A stretch of DNA of 62,492 nucleotides from a virus (lineage: Duplodnaviria; Caudoviricetes). The position numbers were made by a program, and so were the translations under genes. Of this stretch, positions 14,569 to 21,447 are shown one piece after another. How positions within the stretch are numbered: position 1 is the stretch's first letter; each line of letters opens with the position of its first letter. The stretch is taken from IMG/VR virus record IMGVR_UViG_3300047477_000250, positions 1 through 62,492 of that record; one strand, 5' to 3'. Below the pieces are notes generated by a model, which was not told the origin of the DNA, made no database searches, and saw nothing but the letters and a program-made list of their open reading frames with translations.

Positions 14569-15458
14569 ATGATCAATAAATCTATTATAATTAAGAAGTT
14601 TAAATCTTTTGATGAAAGGTTAAAAGATTTCTCTGATAGATATAGTGTACCTCTTTATACTAATAGTATATCTTTTAATTTTAAAACTAATTTATATTAT
14701 ATTCGGTAACTTTAATATATTTAGTAGACCTTTACATTACTGTACTGAAGCTACTAAAGGTGCAAAGATAAAAATTCAAATGGGTTGTTATATTCATGGA
14801 TTATTTCTTTCATCTCCTGGTAATTATTTAAGTAGTTACTCAGGTTGTCCCGAATGTTCAAAATCTTTAATAAAGAAACCTAGAATAAAATCAAAAGAAA
14901 TAATAAAATTATTTAATGTTATACATAATAATTATTACACTTATATAGATTTACCTACTTACTCTGATAAACCTATTAATATAGTTTGCCCTACTCATGG
15001 TTCTTTCTCTATGACACCTCACCATCATAAACAAGGTAGAGGTTGTAAAGAATGTAAGAAGAATAAGAAACAAGAAAATGGAGGTTGGCGGTTACTCTGA
15101 TTGGACTAATGCTGCAATAAATTCTAAAAGTTTTGAATCATTTAAAGTCTATATAATTAGATGTTATAATGATAACGAAGAATTTATAAAGATTGGCAGA
15201 ACGTTTAGTAAATTAAATAAAAGATTTGAAGGTACATCTAAGTTACCTTATTCTTATGAAATAATTTACATTAAAGAATTTAGTAACCAACAAACTATAA
15301 CTAATAACAGTATTGAATGTTGTGAATTTGAAAAGAATTTACATAAAAAATTAAAAAGTTTTAAATATAATCCCTTATTGAAATTTAATGGATACACAGA
15401 ATGTTTCAATAAGGACTCCTTAGAATTAATCAAAGAAGATCAATTATGTCTTTTTTAA
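14569..15458 (+). CDS. Zn-finger-repeat/GIY-YIG-like homing endonuclease, recoded at CGGT 14704 and 15089 (295 aa)
   Basis: CxxHG/CPxC repeats plus KVYII...FIKIGRT...ECF; three frames join exactly at CGGN. Confidence 0.8.
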
Positions 15459-18400
15459 GTCAATTATCAACTTTTGGATTAGAAGCTTTCTCTACTGATT
15501 CCACAAAGAAATATCGTAATGCATTATTCGCTAATGGCCTATGGCAAATACGTGATGAACCAGTTGGTGAGTTTACATTAAAAGTACAAGATTTTGATGG
15601 TAAGAAATATGGATTAACTAAAGATTGTCAATTTAGTTATACACCAAAATTACCTAAGATCCCTCACACTATCTTTAATAATATTTTACAGTATTATAAA
15701 GATATTTATGCAACGCTTAAATCAGAAGTATATACTAGCATTTGCTGGGATATTGCAAAGCAAGATTATTTTATTTATGTACCAAAACAAGTAGTTTCTG
15801 GTGCAGCTGTAACGTTTGAAAATAACGCAGCGATTATGAATGATCCTAATATTGTAATTGTATGCGATGTGCATTAATTTGAGTGCCTTTATGTAGTAAT
15901 ACATATCGAATAATTGGGTGAACCTGTGTAGGAAACAGGGTGTGAGAGGAAACTCTTGCTAACGGTGAAACTTCAGAAGAAGAACAATACCGTGCTAAGT
16001 CTATCGAATAAGAAATCAATTAAATCAATTGATAGTAGATAGGAAAGTGTAACGACTAATGGGTGAAGATCTTTACTAATAATCCCGACACGAGTGCCCA
16101 ACACCCTCAATTAAGAGGGTGATGAGATAGTCTTATCTTGACATTTTTCTTCAATGAAAGAAATGAATCTTTCATATTTACGATTTAAGTGTATTTCAGA
16201 ATTATCATACATAGAAAACATAAGTAATATATTATCTTTAGCACCGTATAGACAGTCCAGAAATATTAGCTGAGTGATTAAAATAATAAGAAGTAATTCC
16301 GAAAACTTTTATATAATCCTTTAGAAAATCCTCTGTTCCTCTTATACTTATATAATAATGACCTTTTGGTTTAGAAGCGGGAACTGTTTTGAATATAGAT
16401 CCATCTCCATCAAAGTATCCTCTTAAGAAGGCTTTTCTGAATTCTTTAGGTATATTGTGTATTATAGATGGCATAGTTAATGATTTATTGGATTCTATTC
16501 CTAAATCATTTAAAGCTTTAATATGTTCTTTTCTACTTATAACGAAACGAACATGATCCTTTTTAGTTAATTGTTTAACTTCATGATCGCAACCAATATC
16601 TTCTTTTAAAGAATCAAGTATGATTCTATCTTTAGAGTGTATTGTTATTGTTAAAGATGTACTTGTTTTAGTTTTTACTAAAGCACCATCAGCTGCAATA
16701 AAGCCAACAAAATAAGCTTTTTTATCTGTGTTAATATTTCTAAAATATTCTAAATTTCCAGGATTTAGGGTGAATTTACTATCAGGTCTGTACTTTTTAA
16801 TTAAGTTGGACACACTCTGATGATATTCATTCAACTCTTCAGCTAATGATTTTATAGATCTACCTTTATCAATTTCGGATAAAATGTAATCTTTATGTTT
16901 TTCAAGTTTTAATTTCATGTATTACTCCTTACTTTTCTAGTGATGAATTAAGCCACTAGATTGTGAGTAATATTACATTTAAATTATTTGAATGTCAAGT
17001 AGATTAGTAATTAAAAAACTAATTGTAAAAAATGTCACATAATGTAATGAGTGCGTTGACCTAAGCGCACTAGATATAGTAATATATCTAAAGAAAACAA
17101 GGTGAACCTGTTTAGAAGACAGGGTGTTGTAAGAGTACTAATATATTAATGTCAAGAAAAATAACATTTAATAATACAGTGTTTCAAGAACGAGCTAATC
17201 TAATACATAAACGGCAGATATTTATACTTACATGAGTGTAATGGTTATAATACGAAAGTAACTATAACTTGTAAAATTCATGGAGAATTTATTCAATCCG
17301 TTAAACATCATTTATCTGGTAGCGGTTGTCGTAAATGTGATAACCAAAACAGAACACTAACTAATGAAGAATTCTTAAAAAGATCAAACAAAGTACACAA
17401 TAATTTATATACTTATTTAACTGAGTATATTGACTATTATACACCTATTGAAATAGTTTGTTCTTTACATGGAAAATTCTTTCAAAAACCTGCCAATCAT
17501 ATGAGAGGTTCAGGTTGTTATGAATGTGTTTCTAGTAAGATTAGTAAAGGTAACTTGAAAGATAATGAAAAATTCTTAGAAGAAATTCCTATTAGTCATA
17601 AGGATAAATATACTTATCCTGAAAAATATATAGGTGCACATACTCGCATAAATATAAACTGTAAAATACATGGTTTATTTTTATGTTCTCCTAATAATCA
17701 CGTAAGGGGAAAAGGTTGTCCTAAATGTTCTAAGTTAAGTCCTAATCGTAATGGTTGGTCTTATTCTAAATGGGATAGTGTAAGTAAAAATTCTAAGCAA
17801 TTTAATAGTTATCAGGTGTATGTTATTAAATGTTCTAATAAAGAAACAGATGAAAATTTTATAAAAATAGGTAGGACATTTACAACTATAGAAACTCGTT
17901 TTAGTGGTTCTAAAGTAATGCCTTATGATTATGAAATTTTAAATGTTACTAAATTTAATGATGCTCTTTCTTGTTGTTTAAAAGAAGAAGAGTTACATTC
18001 TAAATTTAAAAAGTATAAATATAAACCTTTAATTAAATTTAGAGGTGTATGTGAATGCTATGACTTAAATATATTAAATGAATTACAGCTAACGGTGGAA
18101 GTTTGATAGACGACATCCGTGCTAAGCATATCTTATGTAAAGACAAAGAGATATGAAAGTGTAGAGACTAGGTATTGAGTAACATAACAATATATACCCA
18201 CGAGCGCCTTGCTCCTTTAGAAATAAAGGATGATGAGATAGTCCGATCATTTACAGATCAACTAATTTTTAGTGTAGTAAATGAAGCATTGAAATTAAAA
18301 AGAATGCGATAACAAAATATGTTTGGTCAGCTGCTGATAAAGCAGATCAAAAAAGCAGTAGATTATTTGGTGTCATTGGTAAAATTTTAGATCCAACACC

Positions 18401-19216: not shown

Positions 19217-21447
19217 ATGACAAATACGTTTACAGATACTACTTCAAATGATTCTACTGTGAATGGGGAGGATACTGTTGCTACGGCTTCAGTATCTTCA
19301 CCTGAAGTTCAAGAAGAATTAAAGACGAAGGAACCTCCAAAGATTCCTAATAATATTTATTTACAGCAACCTAATGAAGCTGAACGTACAGTTTTGCTTA
19401 ATGAAAATTTTAATATTTTTCAAATTAGTGGTATGGTAAATACTTTAAAAAGTGCTGTTAATCCTTTACATCATATGTTAAAACAAAAGAGTAAAGTGTT
19501 TATCTTTGGTGCTGGTGGTACTACCTCGTGGTTTTTACCTAAATTATTGAAGATCTATAATGATGCATTTCATAAAGTACCTAGTTTACGTTATGATTTA
19601 CAAATTGTATTAATAGATGCAGATCAGGTTTAACTCTATATAATTCCAAGTTATGTAGAATTACAAATTTAAATTTGTTTGGACCTGAATAAACCCTTTC
19701 TGATCGACTAGGAACTCCATACTAAGGACAATTAGGCGCAAGCATACCATACTGTATTAACTACAGTAGAATCGGTAGGGCAGCGTGAACGCAGTAAGCG
19801 ATAGGGAGAATAATGTAGTGATTATATTATTCTATGCAGTACTCTGATCTACAAATATATAGTAGTTTAATTAAATAGTAATAGCATAGTTTGCTAGTAG
19901 TCTAATTGGATAGGCAACGGATTTCTACTCCGTCAATATGCAGGTTCGAATCCTGTCTAGCAAACTATGCTATTATCTCCGAGTAGTTCAGTGATAGAAT
20001 GCAGGCTTTGGGAGCTTGTGGTCGAAGGTTTGAGTCCTTCCTCGGAGACCATAATTTAATTAAATAAAATTGTAGACTAAGACAGAAATGATCTTGGAAA
20101 GTAAAACTAAATGGAAGTAATGGGAGAATTAGCTGATCCCGTCGGACTGTAACTCCGATGACCACCATATCATGTACGTGCAATTCGTACTACTTCCACC
20201 ATATTTATTATTAAAGTTTATTCTTATTGCTCTCGCATAGCTCAGTTGGTAGAGCGACGGACTGTTAATCCGCAGGTCCCTGGTTCGATCCCAGGTGTGA
20301 GAGCAATAAGAATAAATGTTATATTTTAGGAAGATCAACCCAAAAGCTGGCGATGGGAACTGTCTTGAAAACAGTCGAGTGCTTTGCGCCTTGAGAGTTC
20401 GACCCTCTCATCTTCCGCCATATTAAAGAGAGTAAACCATCAAGGGATGTGCTCCACCTGCTAAGTGGATGGACCGTTATAGGTTGAGCTTCGATTGCTC
20501 TACTCTCTGCCATTAATATGTAAGATACATAATAATATAAAGTTTTATTTTTAACAAAATTGGAAACTAAAAATTTAATTCGTCAGAACTTCATTAGTCC
20601 TGATGTGAATCGTAATAAAGCAGAAGTATTATCAGAAAGATATGATGCGTTATATCCTAATATTTCTGTTACATATGTACCAAAATATGCTACATATGCT
20701 AACTTTGATACTAAGTATCTTCCTAATAATAAGTATCCAGAGGAACATTTTGTATGTTTAAACCAATTAGGTATTAATAAAAAAGATATACTTATTAACT
20801 TAGTTGATAATGAAGGTTTCAAGAAGAAGTTGGATTTCTTTATAGCTCGTTATAAGAATCCTATGTTTGCTGCTGGTGTTAATTTATTTAATGGTCAAGT
20901 TTATTATAGTAATAATAAGCATACAAATGGTTACGTTTACGATCACCCTGACTTATTAGATATCTTTGATGAAGTATCTATTCATGCCTGTGCTGATCAT
21001 GATGCTAACGGTACTGATGACAATCCTGAACAATTGTTCAATGGTAATGATGTAGCTGCTTCTTTATTAGCTAACTTGTATCAAACTGTACTTACTTCTA
21101 TTCCTTTATACAAACGTATTAACTTTGTATCTGGTGATAATATGAATGTAAGTGTTGGTGAACGTAATTACTCTGTTTTATTTGAGCATATTAAGAACTA
21201 TACAAAGAATCATAATGAAGAGCTTACTAAAGCTAGAAATTATTTTGAACGTTATGGTTACTTACCTACTAAGACATCTGTTAGATACTTTGAACTTTTA
21301 AAACAGAATCATAAATTTTTAAATTTTAAATCTATTTATGAGACTGGAGAAATTTTAGAAGAACCTACTGTTTCAGAGCTTACTAAAGAAAGTACAGTAA
21401 GTACTGCTCAAGAGACTATTAGAATAGAACAAGAAGTTGTAGCATAA
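19217..21447 (+). CDS. ThiF/E1-like adenylyltransferase; exons 19217-19630 and 20563-21447 (432 aa)
   Basis: GAGGT nucleotide-binding loop; splicing restores DADQV|ETKNLIRQNF; NKAEVL; VDN. Confidence 0.9.
19891..19964 (+). tRNA. tRNA-Arg(TCT), no encoded CCA, extended acceptor stem
   Basis: ACGGA-TTTCTAC-TCCGT anticodon arm; TTCGAAT. Confidence 0.85.
19977..20051 (+). tRNA. tRNA-Pro(TGG)
   Basis: CTCCGAG/CTCGGAG+ACCA; loop TTTGGGA. Confidence 0.92.
20113..20201 (+). tRNA. tRNA-Tyr(GTA)
   Basis: GGAAGTA/TACTTCC+ACCA; TCGGA-CTGTAAC-TCCGA; long variable arm; atypical T loop. Confidence 0.85.
20231..20303 (+). tRNA. tRNA-Asn(GTT), no encoded CCA, extended acceptor stem
   Basis: Canonical D/T arms; loop CTGTTAA. 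Confidence 0.9.
20329..20420 (+). tRNA. tRNA-Ser(TGA)
   Basis: GGAAGAT/ATCTTCC+GCCA; loop CTTGAAA; long variable arm. Confidence 0.92.
20427..20512 (+). tRNA. tRNA-Ser(GCT)
   Basis: AGAGAGT/ACTCTCT+GCCA; TCCAC-CTGCTAA-GTGGA. Confidence 0.85.

Follow-up and report, generated by a model that had tools for sequence, protein, structure and literature searches.

A group I intron with tRNA cargo probably interrupts a ThiF/E1-like gene of a phage

The present study concerns a 62,492-nt stretch of phage DNA (Duplodnaviria; Caudoviricetes; IMG/VR record IMGVR_UViG_3300047477_000250, positions 1 to 62,492), hereafter the window, and within it a ThiF/E1-like gene whose coding sequence is split by an insert with six tRNA genes. 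The G+C content of the window, itself a fragment of a virus record, is 27.4%, and almost all of its genes point in one direction. In the list of open reading frames (ORFs), a 932-nt gap lies between two ORFs on the + strand, at 19217-19633 (138 aa) and 20560-21447. The first of these ends in ...LIDADQV, followed by a TAA stop codon at 19631-33, and this in-frame TAA opens the insert. We consider it probable, at roughly 0.85, that the insert is a group I intron with tRNA cargo and that it is spliced in vivo. The split gene is laid out as follows.

19217..19630, + strand: exon 1 of the ThiF/E1-like (PRTRC-type) gene, 138 codons, ending ...LIDADQV (ORF list; alignment with the phage gene ME3_130 up to the junction)
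19631..20562, + strand: putative group I intron, 932 nt, starting with the in-frame TAA and ending in G20562 (exact junction; core model match; helices; joint 19630->20563 in contigs from RNA libraries)
20563..21447, + strand: exon 2 of the ThiF/E1-like gene, 294 codons plus stop (Pfam ThiF; alignments)

The identification of the gene as ThiF/E1-like and PRTRC-type rests on a ThiF-family domain and on a neighbour that encodes PRTRC protein A. Residues 1-124 of the C-terminal half match positions 56-161 of the 238 in the Pfam ThiF profile PF00899 (E 3.9e-9; 36.5 bits, cut-off 28.1). Because this match begins at residue 1 of the protein but at position 56 of the profile, the front of the ThiF domain is missing from the C-terminal half. 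The neighbouring ORF at 15446-15877 is 42.9% identical to the 'PRTRC system protein A' of Acinetobacter phage ME3 and is a full-length homologue of it (residues 5-144 of 144); this name and 'ThiF' are those used in the ME3 record. The ME3 'ThiF' gene, ME3_130, is uninterrupted (49.5% identity), and the two halves in the window abut exactly when aligned with it (...IDADQV/ETKNLIRQNF... against ...MDHDEV/ETKNIIRQNF..., the slash marking the junction), with no residue lost, repeated or gained. An earlier note on this DNA, drawn up from the letters alone, had claimed that removal of 19631-20562 fuses DADQV to ETKNLIRQNF, and the alignment bears this out. In other words, the interruption is precise, and the exons rejoin in frame and restore conserved sequence, as is characteristic of a group I intron. 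The split falls within the nucleotide-binding motif DxDxV/ExxNLxRQ.

Among phages in GenBank, the only relative of the C-terminal half was ME3 (two records of the same phage), and blastn of the 2.5-kb region gave only tRNA matches and the ME3 ThiF match. The C-terminal half alone, used as a protein query against viral contigs, found no relatives. The protein search with this half yielded 43 homologues in two length classes, of which 23, hand-picked across the score range, were aligned. Nine of the 23 begin exactly at M+E(T/P)KN (P0003, P0004, P0006, P0007, P0009, P0014, P0015, P0016, P0022), three start five residues later (P0023, P0037, P0038), one has a short read-in N-terminus (P0012) and one starts far downstream (P0043). 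The remaining nine are full length and uninterrupted through the site (P0002, P0005, P0008, P0010, P0019, P0024, P0026, P0030, P0033); together with ME3_130, they represent the intron-less alleles in relatives to which the earlier note had pointed as a comparison. The uninterrupted P0002 and the split P0004 are nearly identical over exon 2, which shows that very close alleles can differ in the presence of the insertion. Relatives with DNA numbered five (L003-L007), one of which, L007, starts within exon 2, the insert lying outside its span. The frame of exon 2 is intact in all five intron-bearing alleles (the window, L003, L004, L005 and L006), and the pairwise ratio of nonsynonymous to synonymous substitution rates (dN/dS) among them is 0.32-0.57 at dS 0.5-1.4. 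Such constraint on a gene split inside its nucleotide-binding motif would be most simply explained by splicing.

The insert could be folded into the paired regions (P) of a group I intron, with their loops (L) and joining segments (J). The helices are listed in order, their pairs having been checked by script.

19624..19688, + strand: P1, exon UCAGGUU 19624-30 with guide GACCUGA 19682-88, U19630.G19682 at the 5' splice site; 7/7 paired, recovered by the minimum free energy (MFE) fold
19677..19680, + strand: P10, guide GUUU 19677-80 with exon 2 AAAC 20564-67; 4/4 paired
19690..19846, + strand: catalytic core P3-P8; match of covariance model R1 at 19690-19828
19694-700 / 19800-06, + strand: P3; 6/7, one U.U
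19708-11 / 19732-35, + strand: P4; 4/4
19716-18 / 19726-28, + strand: P5; 3/3
19736-39 / 19783-86, + strand: P6; 4/4
19743-48 / 19774-79, + strand: P6a; 5/6
19750-56 / 19762-68, + strand: P6b; 7/7
19790-96 / 19840-46, + strand: P7, GCAGUA/UACUCUG; atypical
19807-17 / 19823-33, + strand: P8; 11/11
19848-54 / 20070-76, + strand: P9, TCTACAA/TTGTAGA; 7/7; with P9a it encloses tRNA-Arg and tRNA-Pro (19848..20076)
19865-76 / 20054-65, + strand: P9a, extension of P9; 12/12 (12 bp)
20077-82 / 20092-97, + strand: P9.1 hairpin CUAAGA/UCUUGG, loop CAGAAAUGA; 6/6
20098-108 / 20541-51, + strand: P9.2, AAAGTAAAACT/AGTTTTATTTT, enclosing tRNA-Tyr, tRNA-Asn and two tRNA-Ser; 11/11, one G.U
20552..20562, + strand: 3' tail UAACAAAAUUG with terminal G20562; tail conserved in L003-L006

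The ribozyme core (P1 and P3-P8) is contained in the first ~220 nt of the intron, and the 51-nt L1 of P1 has hairpins of its own. The MFE of the whole intron lies at z = -6.5 (20 shuffles), and the fold recovers P1, P5, P8, P9a and the cloverleaves. Several features claimed in the earlier note were found again, namely the U.G pair of P1 at the 5' site together with the terminal G, the P9.1-like hairpin (20077-97), and the stem at 20098/20541 around the Tyr, Asn, Ser and Ser tRNAs. The same note had placed tRNA-Arg and tRNA-Pro in a loop closed by TCTACAA (19848) and TTGTAGA (20070); the pairing stands, but the loop is not an anonymous one, since the stem is P9 itself. An alternative layout, with these two tRNAs in P6 and UACC/GGUA as P4, was ruled out on the basis of introns that match the Rfam model RF00028 and of the class alignment described below, which identify these elements as P9 and P6a. 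In P7, the presumed guanosine-binding site, the G-C pair is present with an extra C after its G, and one pair is flipped compensatorily. As a separate observation, AGAUCAG at the close of exon 1 has a second possible partner, CUGAUCU, which covers the 3' strand of P7 and the first bases of P9 (19613-19627 / 19844-19858; 15-nt arms, 80% complementary), and this pairing could be an alternative that competes with P1.

The window layout was read off against RF00028-positive phage introns. The J4/5-P5-J5/4 motif GGAACUCC..UAAGGACAA is common to the window intron and to introns that score 70-95 bits on RF00028; a scan with it returned 33 loci, many of them by eye chance matches in coding sequence, and these were not counted. 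A second motif scan, with J6/7-P7 ... J8/7-P7' taken from L003 and L038, found at least 120 viral loci (IMG/VR, L041-L160), which form a class of compact introns. The 88 distinct contiguous cores were reduced to 40 at <88% similarity, the longest (L048) was dropped, and 39 were aligned. RNAalifold predicted P3, P4, P5, P6, P6a and P8 from these 39 cores, and 18 of the 24 pairs were maintained by two-sided changes in at least one sequence. The covariance model R1 was built from the 39 compact phage introns without the window and without L003. With filters off, R1 had a single match in the 62-kb window, at 19690-19828 (47.5 bits, E 3.2e-9, these E-values being rough by the search tool's own statement), the next hit having an E of 1.6; the L003 insert scored 70.9 bits. 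The window itself does not match the pattern of the second scan, and that pattern contains the P7 sequence, so the compact-class loci are not an independent check of P7. Regarding the class as such, its members lack P2, and some loci have 2-3 copies within ~1.5 kb (three each in L050 and L056). Only four GenBank phage records were found for it by blastn, none annotated as an intron, and a P1 with U.G was seen by eye in L120, L145 and L038.

In L003, a 229-kb viral contig, the gene is split at the same codon (...VDGDIV, a stop, ~1.3 kb, then EQKNLLRQNF). The first ~190 nt of the L003 insert align with the window insert, and the remainder is occupied by a 337-codon ORF with LAGLIDADG domains (Pfam E 7.6e-11), situated in the P9.2 loop, the very loop that holds four tRNAs in the window. 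P1 of L003 is AUAUCGUU/GACGAUAU, against UCAGGUU/GACCUGA in the window, the guide tracking the exon; P10 is UGUU with exon AACA at the same positions, against GUUU with AAAC. Because the guides track each phage's own exon, selection for splicing is indicated in both lineages. In P9.2 of L003, GUUUGAAAU/GUUUCAAAU, three positions are changed on both sides (hand alignment), and compensatory changes between the window and L003 were also observed in P3, P4, P6a and P8. A hairpin UCAACC/GGUUGA occupies the P9.1 position of L003. P9 is a plain hairpin in L003 and in the compact class, and L9 of L003 measures 38 nt. Thus, the assignment to group I made in the earlier note is upheld by the R1 core match, by P1 and P10, and by the compensatory changes relative to L003. 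The short metagenome contigs L004-L006 hold only the 3' part of the insert, that is, tRNA-Ser(GCU), ~50 AT-rich nt and ...GTTTTATTTAGTAACA(A/T)AATTG/GAAAC... across the 3' splice site. The 3' strand of P9.2, GUUUUAUUU, is invariant in L004-L006, and the 3' tail reads TAACA(A/T)AATTG in these three and TAACAAATGG in L003.

Four of the 20 public sequencing runs matching the stretch were examined, two of which (X18, X19) are metatranscriptomes from one study and two (X15, X16) are probably DNA from another. The joint 19630->20563, which skips 932 nt without ambiguity, was found in one 1376-nt contig of X18 and in one 246-nt contig of X19, with flanks of 255 and 67 nt. It was absent from X15 and X16, in which contigs run through both intron borders. 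X18 also contains an unspliced contig, 19603-19828, beginning 28 nt ahead of the splice site; this contig and the joined one have the last 28 nt of exon 1 in common, and such a start is about what might be expected of a branch in the assembly graph at which the two share the end of exon 1. No significance attaches to intron segments left uncovered by the RNA runs. A joint of this kind is expected from splicing but does not prove it.

The insert carries the following tRNA genes, on the same strand as the gene, with Arg and Pro in L9 and the other four in L9.2.

19891..19965, + strand: tRNA-Arg (UCU); ARAGORN; Rfam tRNA 55.1 bits
19977..20051, + strand: tRNA-Pro (UGG); ARAGORN; Rfam tRNA 59.2 bits
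20113..20201, + strand: tRNA-Tyr (GUA), long variable arm; ARAGORN; Rfam tRNA 27.4 bits, just below the 29-bit cut-off
20231..20304, + strand: tRNA-Asn (GUU); ARAGORN; Rfam tRNA 66 bits
20329..20420, + strand: tRNA-Ser (UGA); ARAGORN; in Rfam only a sub-threshold tRNA-Sec match, 33.5 bits against a 47-bit cut-off
~20427..20513, + strand: tRNA-Ser (GCU)-like, with an encoded GCCA end and the flanking duplex CAUAUUAA/UUAAUAUG; its homologue at L004:31-116 is called by ARAGORN

In the window, ARAGORN called five of the six and three of the six lie above the Rfam tRNA cut-off, the sixth, Ser-GCU, being missed by both. Nevertheless, the count of six given in the earlier note holds, the Ser-GCU gene being accepted through the L004 homologue and through its cloverleaf, in which 7 of 32 predicted pairs are kept by two-sided changes among four homologues. 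Three of the tRNAs are wrapped in leader-trailer duplexes. The acceptor stem of tRNA-Arg runs into a duplex with 19-nt arms that are 100% complementary (19879-97/19957-75), which leaves no unpaired discriminator or CCA; tRNA-Asn has 26-nt arms, acceptor stem included, that are 88% complementary (20212-37/20296-321); and the duplex of Ser-GCU measures 8 bp and is conserved in the relatives. No leader-trailer duplex longer than 4 bp was seen at the three tRNAs of the window outside the intron (Ile, Asp and Gln). These duplexes may act as clamps, folding insulators or RNase III sites. AGA makes up 54% of the Arg codons, and Asn and Tyr account for 8.0% and 5.7% of the 14,199 codons counted. The tRNAs therefore probably constitute a useful payload, not debris, that reads heavily used codons of a 27% G+C genome. 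The intron contains no homing endonuclease gene, the ORFs of at least 40 aa wholly inside it being three that are antisense to the tRNAs, and free-standing LAGLIDADG and T5orf172 ORFs lie 1.5-4.5 kb upstream of it. This agrees with the statement in the earlier note that the tRNAs are carried instead of an endonuclease, for which the LAGLIDADG ORF in the corresponding loop of L003 is the comparison. ARAGORN found 14 tRNAs across the 160 loci, none of them on the same strand within -400 to +1500 nt of the P7 3'-strand motif, a test in which the pieces L004-L006, lacking a core, could not register; tRNA cargo is therefore not general in these introns.

Several smaller observations concern the variation of this cargo. 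Upstream of tRNA-Ser(GCU), positions 1-207 of L006 hold other cargo, a tRNA-Met (131-207) and what by eye resembles the start of an antisense ORF that runs off the contig end; L005 1-70, with 43.9 bits on the Rfam tRNA model, and L004 1-24 hold the terminal part of another tRNA-like gene. One contig of run X15 joins 19975 to 20064 with unknown letters between, and that strain may carry something else in the tRNA-Pro slot. Run X18 has a 171-nt contig that matches only 20047-20095, with unlike sequence on both sides. The X15 and X18 contigs hint at cargo turnover between strains.

The reading of the insert as a spliced group I intron is supported by the exact insertion, by P1, P10 and the terminal G, by the core model match, by the compensatory changes, by the intact exon 2 and by the joints in the RNA libraries. 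Several points weigh against it. First, P7 reads GCAGUA/UACUCUG where L003, L038 and the RF00028-positive introns compared have GACUA/UAGUCUG, and P3 contains one U.U mismatch. Second, 50 inverted-repeat pairs of at least 7 nt occur in the AT-rich 1-kb region, and the long-range stems alone are therefore unconvincing; they are backed by their position after the core and by the comparison with L003. Third, the source loci of R1 were fished with motifs from L003 and L038, and those two had been found through a window motif. Fourth, RF00028 is silent on the intron, both for the 3-kb region at E<=1 and for the 296-nt core stretch at E<=10, so this model gave no match, even with the search confined to the intron's 5' part, ahead of the tRNAs. 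RF00028 also misses the ThiF intron of L003, L038 and 17 copies of the compact class (10 loci, E<=1), while it does find a second intron in the window, at 15865-16154 (51.4 bits, cut-off 50); its failure here reflects the reach of the model, but it follows that no curated family vouches for the compact intron class. Fifth, the full-length copies available for this intron number two, the window and L003. Sixth, the joined contigs come from a related strain, differing at 4 of 262 bases of exon 1 and 37 of 938 bases of exon 2, intron-less alleles are very close to intron-bearing ones (P0002/P0004), and RNA libraries can contain DNA. For these reasons, the joint does not prove splicing: it is present exactly in the X18 and X19 contigs, but they may derive from an intron-less allele of the related strain. 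Finally, promoter-like sites are not enriched (9 against 16.1 +/- 3.7 expected from shuffled sequence, in a scan for sigma-70-type sites only), nor do terminator-like sites exceed the shuffled expectation.

Three other explanations were considered. The one that survives best accepts that the intron splices and holds that the tRNAs are transcribed from internal promoters of their own, in which case splicing and tRNA supply would be independent. Promoter-like hexamers do lie at 20297-20325 and 20507-20536 within the intron and at 19534-19561 just upstream of it, but such sites are fewer than in shuffled sequence, no terminator-like site was found on the + strand inside the intron, and the genes neighbouring the ThiF gene all run in the same direction. 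We regard this explanation as improbable.

Less probable still, and in our view quite unlikely, is that the intron no longer splices owing to its altered P7, that the ThiF gene is a decaying pseudogene or is made as two polypeptides, and that the element is a tRNA cluster with fossil flanks. The extra C in P7, the U.U in P3 and the silence of RF00028 would fit such a history; the joined contigs could represent an intron-less allele, and exon 2 could start at TTG 20560. However, the P1 and P10 guides match the window's own exons and differ from those of L003, which argues for continuing selection for splicing. Moreover, both exons are intact, and exon 2 is so in all five alleles, with the dN/dS values given above; the interior of DxDxV/ExxNLxRQ is an unlikely place to divide a viable two-piece enzyme; and the unspliced and joined contigs of X18 share the last 28 nt of exon 1. 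The third possibility, a mobile tRNA island without any intron, whose stems and U.G pair would be chance matches in AT-rich DNA, could draw on the many inverted repeats and the lack of an Rfam group I match, but is hardly credible given a core model match at E 3e-9 where no other window hit falls under E 1, a homologous core in L003 at the same codon with an endonuclease in place of the tRNAs, compensatory changes in P1, P10, P3, P4, P6a, P8 and P9.2, and a junction without a lost or duplicated residue.

Herein, we propose a course of events for the spliced group I intron. The gene and the tRNAs would be transcribed as one precursor. The core could then fold and enter a guanosine-initiated first step, the 3' splice site arriving ~700 nt later, and self-splicing in the usual two steps would yield the E1 mRNA. 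Host RNase P and the 3'-end enzymes would release the tRNAs, either out of the precursor or out of the intron once excised. Each tRNA group would be closed by helices (P9 with P9a, 19 bp; P9.2, 11 bp), in addition to the leader-trailer duplexes of Arg, Asn and Ser-GCU. Since the tRNA groups hang from these closing helices, the tRNAs could be excised without the ribozyme falling apart; base pairing could keep its pieces together, and either order of events might be tolerated. Release of the tRNAs and E1 splicing may be coupled or may compete, as hypothesised in the earlier note.

The common view of phage group I introns is that they are selfish and carry no cargo besides a homing endonuclease. 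A bolder hypothesis, which we advance tentatively and consider rather doubtful, is that the present intron is a tRNA vehicle, with peripheral loops serving as exchangeable cargo bays, that host RNase P and 3' nucleases excise the tRNAs in vivo with the ribozyme still at work, the exons then being ligated by a three-piece RNA, and that the payload makes the intron a mutualist. The three-piece RNA, held only by P9/P9a, P9.2 and the leader-trailer duplexes, would then amount to natural trans-splicing brought about by tRNA processing; the yield of E1 mRNA would depend on the pace of tRNA maturation; and tRNA sets would spread by homing, with endonucleases encoded elsewhere. The cargo of the relatives differs, being a LAGLIDADG gene in one and other tRNA sets in others, with a possibly swapped tRNA-Pro slot. 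An intron that carries tRNAs for the commonest codons of its phage would plainly earn its keep, and it suggests a possible route for the movement of tRNA clusters between phages. In addition, excision of the tRNAs cuts RNA that the ribozyme needs, which makes the locus a natural test of whether a group I intron functions as base-paired fragments, and of whether tRNA maturation and splicing proceed in a set order, are coupled or compete. The compact class, with at least 120 IMG/VR loci and none of the 18 copies tested found by RF00028, implies that such split genes are probably mis-annotated in many phage genomes.

Compared with known systems, the window intron resembles the T4-type introns (td, nrdB, nrdD/sunY; subgroup IA2) and the RF00028-positive phage introns of L015, L031, L030 and L026 in that a conserved gene is interrupted at a functional motif. 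The ORFs of T4 introns occupy loops of P6 or of the P9 region. The T4-type and RF00028-positive introns likewise have a stop codon just past the 5' splice site, the U.G pair of P1, the terminal G and cargo in a peripheral loop, and the J4/5-P5-J5/4 motif and the J6/7-P7 and J8/7 sequences are common to the window and the RF00028-positive phage introns. In contrast to both groups, the window intron holds six tRNAs in two loops, has no endonuclease gene and has an extra nucleotide in P7; its core is without P2 and without P7.1/P7.2, and RF00028 misses it.

The full-text literature searched, with the accessible parts of PMC3984707, PMC7886860, PMC12386605 and PMC11878797 among it and with supplements and the majority of subscription journals outside it, yielded no account of tRNA genes lying within a group I intron of a phage or bacterium. 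As a precedent, the ND5-717 intron of hexacoral mitochondria comes closest. According to the portions available of Chi et al. 2019 (PMC6545197), the P8 insertion of the corallimorpharian intron contains 16 embedded genes, including one tRNA gene, two rRNA genes and 12 oxidative phosphorylation genes; processing of these genes would cut the precursor before conventional splicing, and the authors report back-splicing as the solution. Like the window intron, ND5-717 as described there holds host genes in a group I peripheral loop in place of a homing endonuclease gene and faces the same processing conflict. It differs in being mitochondrial, in carrying mostly protein genes in P8 and in ending in A, whereas the window intron has tRNAs only, in L9 and L9.2, is 932 nt long and ends in G. 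Back-splicing of the ND5-717 kind is not available to the phage intron, because it needs a circular genome.

The tRNA gene cluster of phage T4 carries the free-standing homing endonuclease SegB, as stated in the part consulted of PMC2330249. In both cases, as far as that text goes, clustered phage tRNA genes are physically linked to a mobile element of the homing type, which could explain the spread of tRNA sets between related phages; in T4, however, the endonuclease gene is free-standing within the tRNA cluster, without any intron, whereas the tRNAs of the window lie inside an intron that itself encodes no endonuclease. Group I introns that interrupt tRNA genes, such as those of cyanobacterial tRNA-Leu and tRNA-fMet (cited in the sections seen of PMC3984707), likewise unite a ribozyme and a tRNA in one transcript, but there the nesting is reversed, with the intron in the anticodon loop. 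The same sections place all phage introns known to 2014 in protein-coding genes, despite the many tRNA genes of phages, and make no mention of tRNAs within introns (PMC3984707).

The surroundings of the ThiF gene contain further elements of interest. The second group I intron (15865-16154, + strand; RF00028, 51.4 bits) starts at the stop codon of the ORF at 15446-15877, and since this ORF is full length relative to the ME3 PRTRC protein A, the second intron sits at or just after the end of the gene, not inside it. It is followed by an antisense LAGLIDADG ORF at 16238-16918 (- strand; Pfam E 9.3e-12). Its counterpart in L003 is an RF00028-like element at 389-664 (48.8 bits), and a further RF00028-like element lies at 2358-2582 of L003 (43.3 bits, below the cut-off), ~1.1 kb upstream of ThiF exon 1. 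ORFs with T5orf172 domains were observed at 15078-15455 and 17501-18103 of the window (Pfam E 8.5e-7 and 5.9e-4) and a zinc-finger-like ORF at 14645-15097; these ORFs and the introns make up, just upstream of the ThiF gene, a cluster of likely mobile-element genes. Finally, a ~30-nt motif, GGTGAACCTGT..AG.A.ACAGGGTGT, occurs twice, at 15917-15945 in the P2 region of the second intron and at 17100-17130, 1.2 kb downstream and past the antisense LAGLIDADG ORF, and it may mark a duplicated or split part of an intron.

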